Positions 33,656-62,263 of a DNA stretch of 64,000 nucleotides are shown piece by piece. Below the pieces are notes generated by a model, which did not search any database, had not been told where the DNA came from, and was given only the letters and a program-made list of their open reading frames with translations. Within the stretch, counting starts at the first letter, position 1; each line of letters opens with the position of its first letter. The translations under genes were made by a program, and so were the position numbers. Origin of the DNA: a virus (taxonomy: Duplodnaviria > Caudoviricetes); IMG/VR virus record IMGVR_UViG_2799112443_000002, positions 1,254-65,253 of that record; one strand, 5' to 3'.

Positions 33656-33684
33656 TTGACATTATCAATAAAACATGATAGACT
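33656..33684 (+). promoter_or_regulatory. Strong sigmaA promoter for the + strand island
   Basis: TTGACA - 17 bp - TAGACT with extended TG; AT-rich upstream element. Confidence 0.8.
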
Positions 33685-34044
33685 ATAACCGTCGAAAGGA
33701 ACACAGCAAGCCGAGCCGGTTAACCCGGCGGGCGGGGGGGAAGCCCCCGCGAGCGTACCTTGAAAATTGAACAGCAAACGCGGGAAAGTGTACAGGGCCC
33801 GGCGCGTTTAGAGTCGACGCGCATAAACGGGAGCCGCGACACAGGCCGGATCATAGGCCCTATGCAGGGCCGGCGGGCATTCTTGCCCTGCTGATGTAAC
33901 AATCTCGAACGACTGTACAAACGCCGCGAAAATCCTGCTTTTTTCCTCCGCCTGCCATGCTCTGCATGGCAGGCGTCCCGGGAATATGCGCAGCATGGAT
34001 CCGGGACGCCTGCCAAGGGCGAACAATGAAAGGTGGATAAGAAA

Positions 34045-34737
34045 ATGAAGCATTCAGTTGAAAGCATCAAAAAGGCCATGGACAACCTGAAAACAGCGAT
34101 TGATAAGTACATGAAGACGCAATACACGGAATTGAGATTGCATATATCCGCCGGAAATAAAAAGATCGGCCGCGTATACAATTTCAGCATGGCGCCCGGA
34201 ATCACTTGCCCTAACTGTGCAGGTTGTCTCCCGTATTGTTACGACGTGAAGGCTGTTCTTCAGTATAAGAACGTCGTAAACGCGCGGGCGGAAAATACTG
34301 CCATGATGTTCATGAACATGGACGACACGTTTGCACAGATTGACGCCTTTATCACGCACACACACCGCAGGAACAAGTTTTTCAGGTGGCACGTGTCCGG
34401 CGACATTATCAATTATGAGTACCTTTGCAATATGGTATGGATCGCAAAAAGGCATCCAGACTGGACATTCTGGACGTACACAAAAGCGTATACCATCGTC
34501 AACCGGTTCATGGAAATCAATGGCGCGGATGCAATCCCGGCGAACCTGTCAATCATGTTTAGCGTATGGAATGGCATGGACTGCCCGAACCCGTTCCAGA
34601 TGCCCACTTTTACATGCATTCAGGAAGGCATGGAACCCGCTCCTGGTGAATGGAAATGCCCCGGGAATTGTGATATCTGCCTCCGCTCCGGCCATGGCTG
34701 CCCGTTCCGTGAATCTGCTCACGTGAATGAGCACTGA
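34045..34737 (+). CDS. GP88-like protein (radical-SAM-like Cys cluster)
   Basis: GNKKIG...TCPNCAGCLPYCY...FRWHVSGD...WTYTK motifs. Confidence 0.7.
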   Translation: MKHSVESIKKAMDNLKTAIDKYMKTQYTELRLHISAGNKKIGRVYNFSMAPGITCPNCAGCLPYCYDVKAVLQYKNVVNARAENTAMMFMNMDDTFAQIDAFITHTHRRNKFFRWHVSGDIINYEYLCNMVWIAKRHPDWTFWTYTKAYTIVNRFMEINGADAIPANLSIMFSVWNGMDCPNPFQMPTFTCIQEGMEPAPGEWKCPGNCDICLRSGHGCPFRESAHVNEH

Positions 34738-34833
34738 CCCGCTCCGGCCGCTCCGGCGGCCGCTCCGGCTCTGCACCCGCTCCGGCGGATGCAGACCCGG
34801 GGCCCGACCCCGAAAATAAAGGAGGAAAAAAAC

Positions 34834-35106
34834 ATGGAAAACCGCGAGATGATCGAAAAAATCAGCGAGCTTCAGGAGCTGAAGCGCATGCGCGACGACC
34901 TAGATGCAGCTATTGAATCCGCTTCGGATGCAATCAAAGCCGCAATGGGCGCCACTGAATCCGCCGTATACGGACCGTACAAGGTCACCTATAGGGAAGT
35001 GACCAGCACCCGCCTGGATACAACCGGAATCAAGAAGGCTTTCCCGGCGGAGGCTCTCGCTCCGTACCTGAAGACCAGTACCAGCCGCCCACTGAAGATC
35101 ACCTAA
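34834..35106 (+). CDS. Hypothetical protein (coiled-coil N-terminus)
   Basis: AAAGGAGG RBS before ATG 34834. Confidence 0.7.
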   Translation: MENREMIEKISELQELKRMRDDLDAAIESASDAIKAAMGATESAVYGPYKVTYREVTSTRLDTTGIKKAFPAEALAPYLKTSTSRPLKIT

Positions 35107-35204
35107 CAGGACCAGCCCGCTCCGGCGGGCCTCCTGACCTGCACCCGCTCCGGCGGATGTAGGTCAGGGGCTACGGCCCCAACAAAAAGCAGGAGGACAG
35201 AACA

Positions 35205-35375
35205 ATGGAAGATTGGACCTATGAGGACCGTCTGAGCTTCACCGACGCGCTCCGGTTCCTTCCGGTGGATGAGATCGCAGACAATGCGGAACTGTCCCGG
35301 CTGGACGAACGCGCAGAAGTGTACGCAACGCTGCAGGATGCCGGCATGCTCCGGTACCGGCTGCAGATTGCCTGA
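35205..35375 (+). CDS. Hypothetical protein (56 aa, not in the track)
   Basis: AGGAGG RBS; MEDWTYEDRLSF...RLQIA*; stop overlaps the next repeat element. Confidence 0.6.
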   Translation: MEDWTYEDRLSFTDALRFLPVDEIADNAELSRLDERAEVYATLQDAGMLRYRLQIA

Positions 35376-35449
35376 CATTGACAGACAGCACCCGGACCCG
35401 CTCCGGATGCTGTAGTCAGGGCCAGGCCCTGAAGAAGGAGGAAAAAAGA

Positions 35450-35782
35450 ATGAGAGCACCAATCAAAGATCTCCCGCTCTCTGGGATTGTAAGAGTGTTC
35501 GACACTATATCAGAAACCGTTATGTATTCCGGAACAGAGGATCTAATCTCGCTCAAGATCGGCCTCCAGATCCCGAAATTGATATATAGCGTGAATGATA
35601 TCACATATATCGATATCGAGTATCAAAAAGTGTACTACGATGCAGAGGCTGAATGGTACTACTATGAAAGCTTCTTCCGCTCAATCTATGACGAAGAAAC
35701 AGAAGAATACCGGTCTTCTCAAACATTCGAACAATTCATGCAATACCAACTAAAATGCGAACCAATCTGGGAAATAACCTGA
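35450..35782 (+). CDS. Hypothetical acidic Tyr-rich protein
   Basis: AAGGAGG RBS before ATG 35450. Confidence 0.65.
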   Translation: MRAPIKDLPLSGIVRVFDTISETVMYSGTEDLISLKIGLQIPKLIYSVNDITYIDIEYQKVYYDAEAEWYYYESFFRSIYDEETEEYRSSQTFEQFMQYQLKCEPIWEIT

Positions 35783-35854
35783 CCTCGACACACGGGACCC
35801 GCTCTGGCGGATCTCGCAGTCGGTGCCAGGCACCGAAAAAAGCAGGAATAGGTG

Positions 35855-35883
35855 TTGACAGATATCACAATACGTGATATCCT
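35855..35883 (+). promoter_or_regulatory. sigmaA promoter with palindromic operator GATATCAC-N5-GTGATATC
   Basis: TTGACA 35855-35860, 17 bp, TGaTATCCT; the palindrome 35861-35881 fills the spacer and overlaps -10. Confidence 0.75.
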
Positions 35884-35928
35884 ATCCTTGTGATAGGTGC
35901 CTACCTATTCCAAGAAGGAGGGAAAAAC

Positions 35929-36681
35929 ATGTTTCGTTCGGTTCCGAAAGCTTACCGGACGCCTGCAGGAAAGTTCTACAGGCCATTCCTGAGACTGGCT
36001 GATCGGCCGCACCTGCTGATCGCAGGGGCCACCGGCTCCGGGAAATCCGTAGCATTGAACGGGATTATCCACTCGCTCCTGATGACGAAGGCCCCGTCCG
36101 AATGCCGGTTCGTCCTGATCGACCCCAAGAAGGTCGAGCTTGTCCAGTACGCAGACGTTCCTCACACCGTCCGGTACGCATCCGAGCACGCCGAGATCGT
36201 CGATGCTCTGAACTGGGCCGCGCAGGAAACTGACCGCAGGTTCGCCCTGATGCAGAAGAACAGGATCAGAGAGTACAACGGATCGCATATCTACGTCATC
36301 ATCGACGAGCTCGCTGATCTGATGGTTTCGCTGAAGAAGCAGACACTCCCCAACCTCCAACATCTCGCCCAGGTTGGCCGAGCCGCTCGTGTCCATGTGA
36401 TCGCATGCAGCCAGAACATCCTGGCCGAAACGATCCCGACCCCGCTCAAGTGCAACTTCTCCACGATCCTGGGCCTCCGCACAGCGAACGCGCAGCAATC
36501 CAGATTCCTGATCTCAGCGACCGGATGCGAGCAACTCCCTGATCCGAAGCGTGAAGGCGTCGGTTACGGATACCTTCGCGACGGAGCCGATCTCGAGCGG
36601 CTGCTGATCTACAAGTACCCGAGCAGCGAGATCGACAGAGCGATTGACTGGTGGACATCCTCCGCCTGCATCGCCGGCTAA
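35929..36681 (+). CDS. FtsK/SpoIIIE-family ATPase (single motor domain)
   Basis: IAGATGSGKS Walker A, IDPKKVEL, IIDELADL Walker B, GRAA. Confidence 0.9.
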   Translation: MFRSVPKAYRTPAGKFYRPFLRLADRPHLLIAGATGSGKSVALNGIIHSLLMTKAPSECRFVLIDPKKVELVQYADVPHTVRYASEHAEIVDALNWAAQETDRRFALMQKNRIREYNGSHIYVIIDELADLMVSLKKQTLPNLQHLAQVGRAARVHVIACSQNILAETIPTPLKCNFSTILGLRTANAQQSRFLISATGCEQLPDPKREGVGYGYLRDGADLERLLIYKYPSSEIDRAIDWWTSSACIAG

Positions 36682-36760
36682 CCCAAGTGACATTGACAGA
36701 CGGCACCCGGTCATCACGGATGCCGTAGTCAGTGCCATCGCACTGAAGAAGGAGGAAAAT

Positions 36761-37024
36761 ATGAGCAAGACAACCTACACCGACCTGTTCGAAGACGAGG
36801 TGGCGGAGGTTCTCCGGGATGCAACCCGCTCCGGTGGAATCATCCTGGAAGGCTGCAACGAATGGTATCCGGCCCATATGATCAATGAGGACGGGATCTA
36901 CTCCTCCGGTTCCGGGATGTTCACACAGTACATCAACGGGACAAGATGCGGATACGTCAGCGCAAGCTACCTCATCAGCCTGCTGGCCCACAAGCCATTC
37001 ACGGTCGTAGCAAACCGTTCCTGA
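36761..37024 (+). CDS. Hypothetical protein
   Basis: AAGGAGG RBS after a repeat element. Confidence 0.65.
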   Translation: MSKTTYTDLFEDEVAEVLRDATRSGGIILEGCNEWYPAHMINEDGIYSSGSGMFTQYINGTRCGYVSASYLISLLAHKPFTVVANRS

Positions 37025-37094
37025 CCCTGACACTCGGTACCTCCGCCGGAGATCCCGCAGTCAGCGCCAGACGCTGAAAAAAGGAGGAAAAAAC

Positions 37095-37394
37095 ATGAAG
37101 ATCTACTGCGTAACGTTCGACGTCCAGTCCTTCGCTTTCCGGGAAACAAAGGATTATATCTTCCATTGTATGGCTAATACCGCGAAGGAAGCCAAGGACC
37201 TCTGTAAAGCAGAATGGCCAAAGCTGTTCAACGCTCCGAACGCAAAGGTACCGCATCAGTTCCACCTCTACGCCCGCGCTTCCAAGATCCAGGACGACGA
37301 GCTTCTCGGATGCAGGACCTGGTTCGGCGCTCCGATCCGTGAAAAAGACTGCTTCGGCTTCATCTGTACCGCAGCCAGACGGTGGCAGAAGTGA
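37095..37394 (+). CDS. Hypothetical protein
   Basis: AAGGAGG RBS after a repeat element. Confidence 0.65.
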   Translation: MKIYCVTFDVQSFAFRETKDYIFHCMANTAKEAKDLCKAEWPKLFNAPNAKVPHQFHLYARASKIQDDELLGCRTWFGAPIREKDCFGFICTAARRWQK

Positions 37395-37479
37395 CCGGTA
37401 ATCGCTGACATTGGCACTCGGGGCCTCCGCTGGAGACCCCGCCGCCAGCGCCAGCTGGAGAAAAAAGGAGGAAGAAGTT

Positions 37480-37794
37480 ATGGAAGGCATCAAGATCGAG
37501 ACCAAGACAAACGGTTATGAAGCCGAGGCGCTTCAGGAAATGATCGAAAGATTTAACAATGTCGCCGCAGACATGTTTCCAGGTTGCACAGTCTATCATT
37601 TCTACTATGGAAATCGCTGCGATATGGCGGATATTGAAATCGGCTCAGGAAACTACGCTCACTTCAATATCTACCCCAACCGAGTAAGCCTGTGCGGCTA
37701 CACCGGCGAAAACGAGGACGTTAGAAAGTGGGAGCATATGACCCACAACGATGAACTGTACGACGGGAAACTGATTGAGCTTGCTGGTTTCTGA
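37480..37794 (+). CDS. Hypothetical protein
   Basis: AAGGAGG RBS before ATG 37480. Confidence 0.65.
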   Translation: MEGIKIETKTNGYEAEALQEMIERFNNVAADMFPGCTVYHFYYGNRCDMADIEIGSGNYAHFNIYPNRVSLCGYTGENEDVRKWEHMTHNDELYDGKLIELAGF

Positions 37795-37866
37795 CATTGG
37801 CACATGGGAGCCGGGCCCCGGCTCTCATAGCCAGCGCCAGACGCTGGGGAAAAAGGAGGAGATTAA

Positions 37867-38085
37867 ATGAGGTACAACAACAAGTTCTTCAGCACCGAGG
37901 CGGAGGCTAAAGCTTTCCGTAAAGAGCATGGCGGCGTCCTGCTCCACTGTACGCCTCGAAGCCACTCAAGCACCAAGATGGAGTTCCACGCTGAGATGAT
38001 GGTAGCTATGGACGCAAGAGGAGAACAGGTAGATCCAGAAAAGACTCCATATTGCGTAGCCTGGAACGAAGGAACACCAGACTGA
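37867..38085 (+). CDS. Hypothetical protein
   Basis: AAGGAGG RBS after a repeat element. Confidence 0.65.
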   Translation: MRYNNKFFSTEAEAKAFRKEHGGVLLHCTPRSHSSTKMEFHAEMMVAMDARGEQVDPEKTPYCVAWNEGTPD

Positions 38086-38152
38086 TCCCGGCACCCGGGA
38101 GCCGCTCCGGCGGCTCTCGTAGCCGGCACCAGACCGGAGAAGGAGGATCATC

Positions 38153-38344
38153 ATGAAACGCTACTTCCGCGATTTCTACGGATGCACAGCAAGCATCCGC
38201 ACCCACCGCAACGGGCAGTCCGACCTGGTCATTCGCACCGGACAGGGCGGGCTGGTCCTCCGCCGGACCTACAACTCCGAGCGCGGTGCCCGCATTGCCC
38301 TGGGTCAGTACAGCGACCGCTGGACCGAAACGACGAGGAGGTGA
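38153..38344 (+). CDS. Hypothetical basic protein
   Basis: AAGGAGG RBS after a repeat element. Confidence 0.65.
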   Translation: MKRYFRDFYGCTASIRTHRNGQSDLVIRTGQGGLVLRRTYNSERGARIALGQYSDRWTETTRR

Positions 38345-38348
38345 AAAG

Positions 38349-38678
38349 ATGGACCCGTTCGAAGATGTCCGGCGCGAGTACGTCAACCGCTACCGTGAAA
38401 CCCATGGCATTCTCCTGGCAAACGACTACGACTCGTTCGTAAATAAGATGTTGGACGCCATCCAGATCACGATGAACGAATCCGACGTCGGCCAAGAGAT
38501 CATCGATGAAGCACTCGGTGTTGCGCTCGCTCGGAATCTCACTCCGGAACAATGGAGCCTGCAGAAAGCAAACCTCATGATTGTTTTGTTCTGCATGGCG
38601 CTGGATGCCTGCCCGTTCCTGAAACACGAGATGGCGCATCACCTGTACAACGAGCTCAGAAAGGAGGCGAACGATTGA
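38349..38678 (+). CDS. Hypothetical helical protein
   Basis: GAGGAGG RBS before ATG 38349. Confidence 0.65.
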   Translation: MDPFEDVRREYVNRYRETHGILLANDYDSFVNKMLDAIQITMNESDVGQEIIDEALGVALARNLTPEQWSLQKANLMIVLFCMALDACPFLKHEMAHHLYNELRKEAND

Positions 38679-38704
38679 CCGGATCCGCTCCAGGAGATTA
38701 TAAT
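38675..38704 (+). promoter_or_regulatory. Putative sigmaA promoter
   Basis: TTGACC - 18 bp - TATAAT. Confidence 0.55.
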
Positions 38705-38737
38705 AAGTCTCCACCCATCGCACGAGGAGGACGCACA

Positions 38738-39109
38738 ATGCCAAAGAGCAGCACCCTGGCGCAGCGCAAGTACGACGCTGCAAACTGTAAGTTCTATCAC
38801 CTGAAGTTTAACCTACGCACCGACGCGGACGTCATTGCAAAGCTCGAATCCGTCCGTTCAAAACAAGACTACATCCGGAAACTTATCCGGAAAGATAATG
38901 AGGAGGAAGCAACTATGGAAAAGACGCTGTATACTGCCATCATCGAGAACGACGAAGGTATCCACCTGATCCGGAAGGCCATTGCTGATCCGACCGCTGA
39001 GTACGAAGACTTCGAATACGCCATGCAGAACAAGGCGGAGGAGCTCGGCGGCGAACTGTACTGCATCTACGATCAGGCCGACATCGTCGAGGACATCACC
39101 CTGGATTAA
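38738..39109 (+). CDS. Ribbon-helix-helix-like protein running in frame into a second acidic protein (internal RBS and ATG at 38915)
   Basis: AQRKYD...HLKFNLRTDADVIAKLESVRSKQDYIRKLIR; GAGGAGG before both 38738 and 38915. Confidence 0.6.
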   Translation: MPKSSTLAQRKYDAANCKFYHLKFNLRTDADVIAKLESVRSKQDYIRKLIRKDNEEEATMEKTLYTAIIENDEGIHLIRKAIADPTAEYEDFEYAMQNKAEELGGELYCIYDQADIVEDITLD

Positions 39110-39123
39110 TGGATCGTTCACTA

Positions 39124-39158
39124 CCCGCTCCGGCTTCGGCCGGACGGGCTTTTTTTTT
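39124..39158 (+). terminator. Intrinsic terminator ending the + strand island
   Basis: GC-rich stem, C(UUCG)G loop, long T run. Confidence 0.85.
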
Positions 39159-41056: not shown

Positions 41057-42949
41057 TTAGAAAGGCATGTCATCACCTGGATCCACCTCCACGTATTCTT
41101 TATATTTTTCCTGCTCAGATTTTTCATCTTCGGGAAGCTTAATTGCGTAATGTGGGATGCCTTTAACGCGGCGAGTAAGGCGGTTATTTTTGTTTCCGTG
41201 GCCGTATGATTCAGGCATGAGAATGTCTTTACGTTTAGCCCAGTCAATGAAGGCTCCGGGGGAATAGCCGTTGTTCTTGAGGATGTTTTCGAATGACGTA
41301 CGGTTGATGAACAGGCAGTCAAAGCCGTCCACGCGGTCATACTTACCCCAGATTTCGCCGTTTGCCTGGTCCTCGCTGTCAAAGCGGCGTGGGTTAGCGG
41401 CGCAGAAACCGATGAGCCACTGATAGCAGCGGAGGTTGATATCTGTCTCTGCCCTGCTTACGAGGTAGCCTTTAATGTCATCAACGGATAGAGCGCGTTT
41501 GTCCTTAAAGATTCCTTTTGTAGCGAGAGCATCTGCCGCGAGGAGAATTGAAGCTGAGAGCACCTGTTTATCCTGGACATCTTCCTGCATCAGTTCAGCA
41601 TAGAACTTTTTCTGTAAGGCTTTAAGGGCATCGATCACGCCATCTTTGTGAAGCATTTTTATGAACTCATTGCCGGCAAATCCGTAGTGTTCCTTTAGGA
41701 GGTTAGCTGTTCCCCTGGCATCTGAGAAGAGCGGTATTCCGCCGAAGTTTACCTCAACGATACGGGCCACAGCGCCACCGCCGGAGTTGCCCTGGGTAAT
41801 AGGCATTTCTCCTGTTGTGATGATGCAAGAGGACCAGCGTTTCTGGACCTGTAGCCCGCCTTCCTTTGCTCCGCGACCTTTACTAACGCCTTCGCAAAGC
41901 ATATAGACGATATCGTCGAATGTCTTGCGGTCGGAGATCACCTGGAGCTCGTCGAATAAGATTGGCAGGTTGCAGCAGAAAGCGGCGTACAACTCCATGC
42001 TGACCTTTGTGCCGGAGAAAGTCTTGATGTACCGGCCGACGTCCGGATTGCCCCATACAGACGCTGCCAGCATCAACGCGACAGTCTTTCCGCATCCGGT
42101 TTCACCCCAGAAGTGAACGAAGAAAGGCAAGCCTCCGAGAATCTGTACGAGCGGTGCTGCAAAGGAAGCAGCCAGGGCGATCCGAGCGGGAACGGAGTCT
42201 GCTGCGCGGATGGACTTAGCACAGTCAAGCCAGGTTTGTCTGTCTCCGGTAGGCTTGAATTCATCGTACATGCGAAGGAACTCAGGGCTATCGCCGTCGT
42301 AGGATACATCCTTCACATATGGCATAAACTGTCCATCTGCGAGCCAGCCCATGTGTGATACGGAATCCTGCCTGGGGAGACTGTCGTAGTTTAGTGACTC
42401 TAAACTTCCCATGTATCGGACAACTTCTTTTGCGTTCTCAGAGTTAACTGCGATTCCCTGACGAGAGAGCCCGATGATTTTCTGAGCGGAAGCCAGCTGT
42501 TCCCGTGAGACTGTAAGAAATTTCCATGGATCTTGGCCTCTGCAGTAAGCAATTTCAAGCTTTTCCTCGAACGTTTCGATATTAGTTACACGGCGAACTG
42601 GCATCAGTGGATGTGATATAACCTCAACATCTGCGCCCATTTCATTCATCCTGGTAACGCCGTATTCATCAGCAATGTATGTTCCGCAATCAAGCTGGGA
42701 TGGTTGCTTTGGGAACATGGTTTGGTTATTGCCGAGGATGGTTGCTTTCGGGGATTTGCTTTCAACATAAGCGTTCCAAGTTTTTATAAACCCAGTGAAT
42801 TTAAGTTCCTTAGCTACGGCCTGCATTTTTGAAAGCAGGATCTGGAGCATAAACTTATTATCCTTTTGTGAATACAGCCATTCATATGGTCGTTCAGAAA
42901 GAAAGTCATCGTACGTCCAGTTAGGGATTAATTGTTTTGCTTCTGACAC
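41057..42949 (-). CDS. DUF927-domain superfamily-3 helicase/primase-associated protein
   Basis: HFWGETGCGKT Walker A, ILFDELQ Walker B, IITTGE motif C. Confidence 0.85.
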   Translation of the reverse strand: MSEAKQLIPNWTYDDFLSERPYEWLYSQKDNKFMLQILLSKMQAVAKELKFTGFIKTWNAYVESKSPKATILGNNQTMFPKQPSQLDCGTYIADEYGVTRMNEMGADVEVISHPLMPVRRVTNIETFEEKLEIAYCRGQDPWKFLTVSREQLASAQKIIGLSRQGIAVNSENAKEVVRYMGSLESLNYDSLPRQDSVSHMGWLADGQFMPYVKDVSYDGDSPEFLRMYDEFKPTGDRQTWLDCAKSIRAADSVPARIALAASFAAPLVQILGGLPFFVHFWGETGCGKTVALMLAASVWGNPDVGRYIKTFSGTKVSMELYAAFCCNLPILFDELQVISDRKTFDDIVYMLCEGVSKGRGAKEGGLQVQKRWSSCIITTGEMPITQGNSGGGAVARIVEVNFGGIPLFSDARGTANLLKEHYGFAGNEFIKMLHKDGVIDALKALQKKFYAELMQEDVQDKQVLSASILLAADALATKGIFKDKRALSVDDIKGYLVSRAETDINLRCYQWLIGFCAANPRRFDSEDQANGEIWGKYDRVDGFDCLFINRTSFENILKNNGYSPGAFIDWAKRKDILMPESYGHGNKNNRLTRRVKGIPHYAIKLPEDEKSEQEKYKEYVEVDPGDDMPF

Positions 42950-61090: not shown

Positions 61091-62263
61091 ATGGGTGAAA
61101 ACAAACGCAAACCAAAGTCCCGTGGCAATGGGCAAGGTACGGCATATCGACGACCTGGGCAAACTGAATGGACCGTGGAAGTTGTCGTTGGCTGGAAATA
61201 CGTGGACGGAGATCCGACAAGGCCAAAGCGTCCTGTTAGAAAAACAAAGGGCGGTTTTAAAACAAAAAAAGATGCACTTGCCTATGCACCGACTCTGTTG
61301 TTGCAAGGAGATAAACGTGTCCGCATGTCCATGGAAGAAGTATGGCTTGCCTGGAAGACATTCTATTCTTCCAGAATCATACCTTCTACCATGGATGGGT
61401 ACTACTATGCCTACAAGCATTTTGCTCCACTTCATGGCACATACATGGATCTTATAACAGCAGATGATTTGCAGAAATGCATGGATGATTGCCAGTCCGG
61501 GAAACGCACACATGAAAACATGCGGTGCATTGCAAACCTCTTGTGGAAATATGCCATTGATAAGAACATTATAGACCGAAATGTTGCAGCAAACCTCTTC
61601 ACAGGTAAAGGTGTGTCAGTTCAGCGGGAAGCACTTACAGATCAGGAAGAAGCAGCTATAAAATCTGCTATTGGAAATGAACGTTATGCGGAATATGTTT
61701 ACTGCCTTTGCTGGCTTGGATACCGCCCTGGCGAAATGCTTCAGCTTCGAAAGGATCAGCTGTTCTGTGCACCGGTAAAGACAGAAGATGAAACACTAAA
61801 CATATGGTATTTTGTTAACGGGAAAAAGACAGATGCAGGGCGTGACCGGATTGTTATTGTGCCGGATGAAATTCTCCAGTTTATTCTGGAACGTTTGTAT
61901 ATTCCCGGAACGGATCTTATCTTTCCACAGTACCAATTTAACAGAAAAAAAGAACCAACGTTTGTTGGCTTTAAAGAAATGACTGATGCATACTTCCGTG
62001 TTGAGATTTTCAAACCGATGATGGCAAGACTCGGAATTGCATCCGGAAAAGTTCCGTATGCCGGGCGGCATTCCTATGCAGATAAACTAAAATCTGCATC
62101 CGGAGCTGAAAAAGATAAAGCCGCATTGATCGGTCATAGCAACTATCTGTTCACGCAAAACAAGTATCAAAGCACCCACTTAAAAGACCTTTACGACCTC
62201 GTAAACAGCTTTTCTACTCCCATCTTACTCCCATCATCAAACGCTGAAACCGTTGAAAAATAA
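61091..62263 (+). CDS. int: Tyrosine integrase
   Basis: Arm-binding N-terminus (RGNGQGT), GYRPGEM catalytic Arg, YAGRHSY, IGH, KY catalytic Tyr. Confidence 0.92.
   Translation: MGENKRKPKSRGNGQGTAYRRPGQTEWTVEVVVGWKYVDGDPTRPKRPVRKTKGGFKTKKDALAYAPTLLLQGDKRVRMSMEEVWLAWKTFYSSRIIPSTMDGYYYAYKHFAPLHGTYMDLITADDLQKCMDDCQSGKRTHENMRCIANLLWKYAIDKNIIDRNVAANLFTGKGVSVQREALTDQEEAAIKSAIGNERYAEYVYCLCWLGYRPGEMLQLRKDQLFCAPVKTEDETLNIWYFVNGKKTDAGRDRIVIVPDEILQFILERLYIPGTDLIFPQYQFNRKKEPTFVGFKEMTDAYFRVEIFKPMMARLGIASGKVPYAGRHSYADKLKSASGAEKDKAALIGHSNYLFTQNKYQSTHLKDLYDLVNSFSTPILLPSSNAETVEK

Follow-up and report, generated by a model that had tools for sequence, protein, structure and literature searches.

Since T7 and SP82, phages have been known to place structured hairpins between their cistrons. 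The early RNase III sites of T7, five in number, yield mono- and dicistronic mRNAs (PMC4858673), and SP82 has Bs-RNase III sites between cistrons, as cited in PMC4838370 (its references 19 and 20). Here, we describe an intercistronic element, a spacer of about 70 bases, which is present in nine copies in a 64,000-nucleotide (nt) stretch of DNA from a temperate phage (positions 1254 to 65253 of contig C94, binned into a metagenome-assembled genome, or MAG, of 4.26 Mb). This whole stretch is called the window below. Every copy sits between a stop codon and the next Shine-Dalgarno sequence (SD) and start codon of a co-directional operon, as T7- and SP82-type sites do. The resemblance extends to the presence of several irregular hairpins with internal loops between the cistrons of one long phage transcript and to the conservation of structure beyond sequence; the host of SP82 is also Gram-positive. 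There are differences too. The hairpin described here is shorter (about 15 to 16 pairs, with a lower stem of 5 bp), the sequences are unrelated, cleavage is only predicted, and the element adds a second overlapping hairpin, a conserved N-RCCA-G sequence, and a built-in stop and SD.

A second point of comparison is provided by the SAS/ESAS sequences of Cluster K mycobacteriophages (PMC3203893). Like them, the element is a repeated motif of fixed orientation located directly 5' of the starts of many non-structural genes in a temperate phage, and it likewise contains an inverted repeat whose spacer varies. Little support exists for ESAS inverted repeats forming hairpins in mRNA (PMC3203893), whereas the pairing of our element covaries strongly; its sequence is unrelated and it includes the upstream stop. 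The T7 and SP82 processing sites are the closest functional analogues, and SAS/ESAS is the closest positional one.

The nine copies and their two exclusive folds

The element has two mutually exclusive folds, and the helices of both are backed by covariation. Fold A is a single long irregular hairpin made of P1, a 3x2 internal loop, P2, a C.A position, and P3. In fold B, P2-P3 is retained, and positions 2 to 5 of the 3' arm of P1 (X') leave P1 to pair with a downstream segment (X''), lengthening a hairpin with CCA in its loop (P4) into what we call P4-long. The initial annotation of this DNA had correctly described the two-hairpin architecture, with an outer stem that is GAC/GTC or GGC/GCC, a 3x2 loop, a 5-bp stem, a C.A mismatch or G-C pair, a distal stem, an overlapping second hairpin, an A-run, and AGGAGG. 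The competition for X' positions 2 to 5 is the main addition to that first description. The nine copies comprise seven canonical ones (c3 to c9) and two variants (c1 and c2), each filling its junction from the upstream stop to the downstream ribosome-binding site. They are listed with their scores in one of two covariance models (R1, unless R2 is named) and, where given, their X / X' / X'' segments.

34735-34833 (model match 34764-34832), + strand: c1, variant; 31.4 bits (R1), 41.3 bits (R2)
35104-35204 (model match 35134-35194), + strand: c2, variant; 21.3 bits, E 4e-4; fold z = -5.1
35373-35449, + strand: c3, canonical; 80.9 bits; from direct reading of the sequence, folds, and parse
35780-35853, + strand: c4, canonical; 79.7 bits; X TCGAC, X' GTCGG, X'' CCGA
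36688-36763, + strand: c5, canonical; 72.3 bits
37022-37094, + strand: c6, canonical; 88 bits; CTGAC / GTCAG / CTGA
37406-37478, + strand: c7, canonical; 82.9 bits; TTGGC / GCCAG / CTGG
37792-37864, + strand: c8, canonical; 82 bits; TTGGC / GCCAG / CTGG; G-C replaces C.A
38083-38156, + strand: c9, canonical; 61 bits; CCGGC / GCCGG / CCGG; G-C replaces C.A; C(UCCG)G tip

The model R1 was built from c3 to c9, which it scores at 61 to 88 bits, and it also detects the variants c1 (31 bits, E 2e-7) and c2 (21 bits, E 4e-4). When both strands of the window were searched, R1 found no match beyond these nine, all of which lie on the + strand between 34.7 and 38.2 kb. Together with direct reading, this search bears out the places and the strand given for the nine copies in the initial annotation. 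A loose IUPAC pattern matches the window five times, versus 0.00 expected from 100 shuffles. A second model, R2, was built from 51 copies, and the two models together identify 57 distinct copies.

From 5' to 3', the element consists of UGAY, one variable nt, X (the 5' arm of P1), a 3-nt loop, the 5' arm of P2, the C.A or G-C position, P3, the 3' arm of P2, Y-A, X', N-R-C-C-A-G, the 3' arm of P4 ending in X'', and a purine tract with the SD. Copy c3 illustrates this arrangement.

35373-35375, + strand: TGA stop
35378-35382, + strand: X, the 5' arm of P1 (TTGAC)
35383-35385, + strand: loop AGA
35386-35390, + strand: 5' arm of P2
35391, + strand: C of the C.A position
35392-35406, + strand: P3 with its loop
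35407, + strand: A of the C.A position
35408-35412, + strand: 3' arm of P2
35413-35414, + strand: loop UA
35415-35419, + strand: X' (GTCAG)
35416-35432, + strand: P4 (TCAGGGC-CAG-GCCCTGA)
35433-35441, + strand: purine tract and SD
35450, + strand: downstream ATG

X is 5 nt long and of the form YYGRC, X' is GYCRG, and X'' is YYGR. P1 and P2 have 5 bp each, and P3 has at least 4 bp with a freely variable tip, which is C(UCCG)G in some copies. The internal loop is A-S-N on its 5' side and Y-A on its 3' side; its columns 11 and 63 are A/A in 39 copies and G/G in 5. The mismatch position is C.A in 30 copies and G-C in 21. Column 4, the Y of UGAY, is a pyrimidine in all 55 copies with a base there, and pairing is possible between columns 5 and 69, a potential extra first pair of P1, in 27 of 57. 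Column 70 holds a purine in every copy, with CCA after it in 47 to 55 of 57, and the CCA starts exactly 2 nt past X'/P1 in 50 of 57. The SD within the purine tract is AGAAAGGAGG, at a fixed spacing from P4, and the start codon lies behind it, 68 to 92 nt 3' of the first base of the element.

The element also has its own stop codon, at a fixed distance of 2 nt from P1. Of 51 copies, 36 use this TGA to end an open reading frame (ORF) of 45 codons or more; the real stop of the remaining 15 lies 5 to 14 nt upstream or is a TGA inside X. In several copies an unused TGA is replaced by GGA. Since the long minus-strand frames of the phage use mixed stops (TAA 23, TGA 21, TAG 5), the uniform TGA is a property of the element. 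The earlier statement that most copies start at or just after the preceding stop needs correcting for c5, whose real upstream stop (TAA, 36679-36681) lies 9 nt 5' of its own TGA, and for c7, whose real stop (37392-37394) lies 14 nt 5' of the element. Copies with a P1 arm TTGAC or CTGAC (e.g., 35373-35381 and 36688-36696) have a second in-frame stop, TGA-NNN-TGA, and in three relatives the upstream gene actually ends at this inner TGA (L015:3694, L014:3970, and L021:2032).

In the alignment of 57 copies, 92.6% of the cells are standard pairs, compared with 65.9% after shuffling (none of 500 shuffles reached the observed value) and 27 to 45% with slid partners, and changes on both sides occur in 15 of 17 pairs. 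This alignment was fitted to the model, and the seven canonical window copies were therefore also counted in an unfitted MAFFT alignment: 90.8% of the cells are paired, versus 75.8% shuffled and 30 to 51% slid, with compensatory (double) changes in 10 of 17 pairs. Covariation, which the initial annotation had claimed from the window copies, is thus corroborated, and RNAalifold independently predicts P1, P2, and P3. The cleanest test comes from orthologous copies, which can be compared with those of the relative L010. The pairs c3/L010:4316, c4/L010:5850, and c9/L010:9558 are 70 to 77% identical and show three compensatory double substitutions each, with at most one disruption (none in the c4 and c9 pairs). 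Because orthologous copies differ by compensatory changes with few disruptions, pairing is maintained in place across about 30% sequence divergence, which argues against decaying insertions.

The second fold is supported in the same way. P4 begins exactly at position 2 of X', with at least 5 bp, in 43 of 50 copies, compared with 3.5% when the downstream sequence is shuffled, and position 1 of X' is never part of it. Hence, X' positions 2 to 5 can pair with X (P1) or with X'' (P4-long) but not with both. The three segments covary: one position is U-A-U in 20 to 21 copies and C-G-C in 21 to 22, and another is A-U-A in 15 to 16 and G-C-G in 23. P4-long is 84.6% paired, with double changes in six of six pairs, despite misaligned rows with shorter stems; P1 is 94.4% paired. 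When one helix is imperfect it is P1, which has a mismatch in about 10 of 51 copies. When P1 was forced in one energy prediction and X kept unpaired in the other, the folds came out near isoenergetic (free-energy difference -0.8 +/- 4.2 kcal/mol, fold A being better in 33 of 50 copies). The minimum-free-energy fold is A in about half of the copies, including c8, whose fold contains P1, and B in the rest. Our analysis shows how the element is built, with its two alternative helices, where it lies, and that it is conserved.

The variants keep part of this organization. In c1, the TGA stop of the upstream GP88-like gene is followed by extra CCGCUCCGG hairpins. Next comes a long hairpin, which contains a 1x1 loop and C.A, is tipped by C(UCCG)G, and has its 3' arm overlapped by a CGGGG/CCCCG hairpin; an A-run and SD complete the copy. 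The same kind of spacer is found at the orthologous junction in L010 and L024. Copy c2, whose ortholog is L010 4071-4169, starts with an additional 5' hairpin; the stem that follows is continuous over 11 bp, includes C.A, and is tipped by C(UCCG)G. A separate GGGGC(UACG)GCCCC hairpin, A-run, and SD come next, and P4 of this copy does not overlap P1. The two UNCG loops reported earlier for these variants, C(UCCG)G and C(UACG)G, are present.

Distribution among relatives and level of action

The search for relatives started from the FtsK-like protein encoded 3' of c4, which retrieved 80 IMG/VR loci. The 57 copies identified by R1 and R2 occur in related uncultured phages and in two MAGs, always on the gene strand, and every contig that has one encodes an FtsK-like protein of about 51% identity or more. 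Copy numbers in five complete or near-complete relatives are 12, 8, 4, 1, and 0, with the copies always grouped in the same island. A survey of 121 genomes related to the MAG gave matches in two others, both of the same genus (2 of 53), and none in those sampled from other genera. These matches are the loci L090 and L091 (two copies in G044:C51:4181-4533 and one in G011:C9:6855-6931). The other 196 contigs of the MAG contain no copy. In a separate scan of genome contigs, the FtsK-like protein gave only distant homologs, up to 40% identical. The initial annotation could match the element to no named motif, and the Rfam search it proposed agrees with this: Rfam 15 at gathering thresholds gave no match in the 64-kb window, and relaxing E to 10 over 34500-38800 gave only chance microRNA-type matches on the minus strand, far below threshold. 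A blastn search of a phage GenBank collection gave no match to the island DNA.

Does the element act as RNA or as DNA? All copies are in sense orientation, inside one operon in every genome that has the element. With the C.A site left out, the sense strand has 63 G.U pairs versus 18 A.C, and two wobbles are systematic, one being a U.G at the foot of P1 (30 of 57 copies) and the other a G.U within P2 (23 of 57). Because of this fixed orientation, of the fixed spacings to stop and SD, and of the sense-strand G.U pairs, the element most likely acts at the RNA level, as a cis-acting structured segment of the mRNA, which agrees with the RNA-level function that had been proposed for it.

Some observations would fit instead a DNA-level element, either a single-stranded DNA hairpin recombination site similar to attC or to the PeSLs of T4-type phages, or a small mobile insertion with its own ribosome-binding site, the RNA features being secondary. 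Complete relatives have anywhere from 0 to 12 copies, an orthologous junction may hold an element in one genome and lack it in another, with boundaries that fall cleanly between stop and SD, and the island is a pronounced mosaic. Non-orthologous copies of different genomes are up to 88% identical, versus about 70% for the flanking genes (c6 and L010:7800, for example, are 88.6% identical though their junctions are non-orthologous). Moreover, five copies have an X mismatched to X' together with matched X' and X'', as a crossover between X and X' would give. We nevertheless regard a DNA-level role as quite improbable. The copies are confined to one operon, with none in the rest of the phage or in the host contigs, and they are old and diverged, with compensatory changes between orthologs, which sets them apart from decaying MITEs. 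A relay ORF is lacking: X is in frame with the start in about one-third of the copies (hand count), the chance level, and a MIRU-like or relay-ORF repeat was rejected on this count together with the confinement to one operon.

The two specific DNA-level comparisons also separate on details. Like attC sites, the copies are imperfect hairpins of about 60 to 80 nt conserved in structure rather than in sequence; they have unpaired bases in their interior and a tip that varies, and they come one to a gene, all in one orientation. attC sites are defined by RYYYAAC/GTTRRRY boxes, bottom-strand folding, extrahelical bases, a spacer of 5 to 6 nt per arm, and the integrase IntI (PMC5027507). The arms of our element, YYGRC/GYCRG, contain neither AAC nor GTT; as DNA, and outside the C.A site, its sense strand has 63 G.T versus 18 would-be on the antisense, and the sense strand folds better; the 3x2 loop and C.A mismatch leave no bulged or extrahelical bases; the spacing to the SD is fixed; and the only integrase-like gene lies 23 kb away (61091-62260) and encodes a phage Arm-binding domain. 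PeSLs combine a sigma-70 promoter and a terminator and were shown to mediate shuffling (PMC2839356). The element shares with them the repetition of intergenic stem-loops in a hyperplastic region of small accessory genes and differs in lacking a -10 box and a U-tract and in not being enriched at breakpoints. A promoter and terminator scan found no such site inside any copy. An attC-like or PeSL-like identity, raised in the initial annotation, is therefore not retained, and of the interpretations listed there mRNA processing or stabilization and a translational switch remain the best two.

The idea that each small gene is an exchangeable cassette likewise gains no positive support, because elements are not enriched at synteny breakpoints: in a crude test, they occupy 39 of 198 non-conserved gene adjacencies versus 7 of 38 conserved ones (20% versus 18%), among relatives that, at about 70% identity, are too diverged to exclude cassette exchange or to reveal recent events. 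The proteins at 37480-37791 and 37095-37391 gave no usable relatives in IMG/VR for a comparison of cassette mobility. Still, spread by recombination is possible in the history of the element, alongside a present RNA function, given the variable copy number, the clean absences, and the 88%-identical non-orthologous copies.

Possible roles in processing, termination, and protein binding

We favor, tentatively and at somewhat less than an even chance, the reading of the element as mRNA punctuation, i.e., endonucleolytic processing with hairpin-capped ends at junctions that are not translationally coupled. An endonuclease would cut fold A at or beside P1 or the internal loop. The candidates are RNase III, on the Y-A side of the loop, and RNase P, at UGAY|N, guided by the helix and N-RCCA. 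The upstream message would then end in or beside a stable hairpin, a Y-A cut leaving P2-P3 as a 3' cap, and the downstream one would start with a hairpin directly before a purine-rich SD. Such a 5' hairpin and SD could protect the message from 5'-3' decay in hosts with RNase J and RNase Y. A cut in the loop would also free X', which could refold into P4-long at the new 5' end, and this would explain the covariation of the three segments. The Y-A-side version is the one that uses every conserved helix. Genes for RNase III (225 bits, exceeding the cut-off), RNase Y, and RNase J are present in the MAG of the putative host, as is a type A RNase P RNA, and about 43% of its tRNA genes encode CCA. 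Cleavage, the nuclease, and a stabilizing effect are our inferences.

The case for RNase P can be compared with known substrates. The bacterial enzyme reads a 3' RCCA, prefers U at -1, and cuts operon mRNAs and phage regulatory RNAs (PMC4919922). Like non-tRNA substrates such as pre-4.5S RNA, the P1/P7 C4 RNA precursor, and operon mRNAs, the element has a helix followed by single-stranded RCCA and a pyrimidine 5' of the helix. It differs from them in that the RCCA is offset by +1 nt, there is no T-loop, and the CCA can join the loop of P4. A bolder and rather improbable version can be formulated from this likeness. The element would be a self-capping signal mimicking a tRNA acceptor arm (UGAY|helix, N-RCCA), cut right after the stop by RNase P or RNase III, and the X/X'/X'' switch, set by the terminating ribosome or by the cut, would decide junction processing and 5' capping. 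If true, such a minimal two-state hairpin would give bacterial viruses a counterpart of the tRNA punctuation known from mitochondria.

Several points weigh against processing. The helices, of 5 + 5 + 1 + 4-5 pairs around the internal loop, make a hairpin of about 15 to 16 pairs with only 5 bp below the loop, short for a classical RNase III substrate, where an internal loop interrupts about two duplex turns, and an RNase III cut leaves the RCCA unexplained. For RNase P, the RCCA is one nt further from the helix than the discriminator-CCA of a tRNA (2 nt, not 1), the extra pair of columns 5 and 69 forms in fewer than half of the copies (27 of 57), the T-loop is missing, and a cut by this enzyme alone leaves the competition between P1 and P4 unexplained. 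Relatives also dispense with the element at orthologous junctions: L022 has TAA-catc-ATG (a 4-nt gap) where L026 has an element, L032 has an 18-nt gap at the junction occupied by c1 in the window, and one complete relative has no copy at all. Finally, the link between the phage and the host MAG consists of binning and of the two MAGs of the same genus.

The fixed position of the stop suggests another mechanism, which we consider doubtful, if less so than the remaining rivals: a termination-coupled switch. A ribosome terminating at UGAY would cover the 5' arm of P1, freeing X' for P4-long; the two hairpins would bring the stop close to the next SD, so that translation of one gene promotes or tunes initiation at the following one, and fold A would prevail when the upstream gene is not translated. 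The 5' arm of P1, at a fixed 2 nt from the stop, begins inside the footprint of a terminating ribosome, the stop is inside the element in 36 of 51 copies, and TGA is kept despite the mixed stops of the minus-strand frames. The fixed spacing from P4 to SD and the two near-isoenergetic, covariation-supported folds would fit as well, and the operon junctions without an element are all tightly coupled, with overlaps or gaps of 0 to 20 nt. Against this, neither fold hides the SD: the predicted probability that the SD-start region is unpaired is 0.61 for the real hairpins versus 0.60 after shuffling, a result that also led us to reject SD sequestration or exposure as such. The structure is fully kept in the 15 of 51 copies whose real stop lies 5 to 14 nt upstream or inside X. 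Furthermore, TGA often decays to GGA where it is not used as a stop, and so its T is kept by the stop function rather than by a switch.

The conservation of unpaired positions, while stems vary freely, would be expected if the element were bound, as an operator, by a trans-acting RNA-binding protein from phage or host. Such a protein would co-regulate the following genes by translational repression, activation, or protection, recognizing the A-S-N / Y-A internal loop, the C.A position, and the N-R-CCA-G loop. Columns 11 and 63 (A/A in 39 copies, G/G in 5), the dichotomy between C.A and G-C (30 versus 21), and the nearly invariant CCA-G fit this idea, and the island encodes many small proteins without known function. 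On the other hand, none of the ten island proteins scanned has an RNA-binding domain, no gene tracking copy number turned up, although no systematic search was made, and the competition between P1 and P4 is left unexplained. We think it as improbable as a DNA-level site, and the resulting ranking puts mRNA processing and capping first, then the termination-coupled switch, and then the protein operator and the DNA-level site.

A few other functions were considered and rejected. The TTGACA-like P1 arm is not part of a promoter, having no -10 box at the right spacing and none called by the scan. Intrinsic terminators or attenuators do not fit hairpins that precede A/G runs and lack a T-run, and no copy was called by the terminator scan. 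Programmed bypass or readthrough is at odds with the mismatch of take-off and landing codons and with the second in-frame TGA (TGA-CAT-TGA) of copies with X = TTGAC. A pseudoknot between the CCAG loop and X is contradicted by the constancy of the loop while X varies. These rejections leave an RNA between cistrons that would be cut, would sense the terminating ribosome, or would do both.

Operon context and significance

The contig C94 repeats its first 25 bases at position 65,154 of 65,253, which gives it a terminal overlap of about 100 bp, and it is therefore most likely a whole phage genome, either circular or terminally redundant. At 46.7% GC, it differs from the MAG into which it is binned (53.4%), and the host of this temperate phage is an uncultured gut or rumen-type bacterium. 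The + strand island with the elements sits between two minus-strand blocks, one of structural and terminase genes (1-32.5 kb) and one of replication genes, comprising a DUF927/Cch primase-helicase (41057-42946), a helicase, and a PD-(D/E)XK nuclease. The initial annotation called the island early; our analysis offers no support for this statement on timing. The recognizable features of the island, from a consensus scan and the ORF layout, are given below; the limits of the transcription unit are inferred, and the remaining content is many small ORFs without a family match.

33656-39154, + strand: probable transcription unit with the elements
33656-33684, + strand: promoter-like site, start of the unit (consensus scan)
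34045-34737, + strand: GP88-family gene
35855 and 38675, + strand: internal promoter-like sites (consensus scan)
35929-36681, + strand: FtsK/SpoIIIE-like ATPase
39129-39154, + strand: terminator-like hairpin and T-run, end of the unit (scan)

These promoter-like sites and the terminator-like hairpin suggest that the island is one operon with internal promoters. The first internal site (35855-35929, between c4 and the FtsK-like gene) is TTGACA, 17 nt, TATCCT, with TG, and is embedded in the palindromes GATATCAC..GTGATATC and AATAGGT..ACCTATT. This is probably an operator-controlled internal promoter, and L010 has a similar ATAGGT..ACCTAT arrangement at the same junction. The second (38675-38704) is a near-consensus sigma-70 site (TTGACC, 18 nt, TATAAT; 11 of 12 matches), which overlaps the end of the gene at 38349-38678 and lies shortly 5' of the gene starting at 38738. 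The hairpin, TCCGGCTTCGGCCGGA plus a T-run, lies 3' of the gene 38738-39109 and is likely the end of the operon. It opens with CCGCTCCGG (39125), a motif also seen in the tips of elements. The window has 11 occurrences of this motif on its + strand and none on its - strand; two of them, at 34683 and 36826, are inside coding sequence, and the latter could form a CCGC-UCCG-GUGG hairpin inside the gene. Next to c1, a 90-amino-acid protein (34834-35106) matches the C-terminal part of PHROG 434, a RecE-like recombination exonuclease (E 1.6e-9), and its gene is kept beside the GP88-like gene in most relatives.

The reach of the element is narrow, being a single clade of uncultured temperate phages. 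Within it, the element is an uncatalogued RNA family, a clean candidate for a new Rfam family, set apart by the three-way covariation behind its two exclusive folds, by the stop and SD that it contains, and by a conserved RCCA. Few intercistronic elements show two competing helices, each with compensatory changes, as clearly as these 57 diverged examples do, and some 70 nt suffice to link the stop of one gene to the ribosome-binding site of the next. With this link, the element offers a compact natural system to understand how phages set the stability and translation of single genes in long operons, in hosts with RNase J and RNase Y, and if its function is confirmed it could provide a portable intercistronic part.

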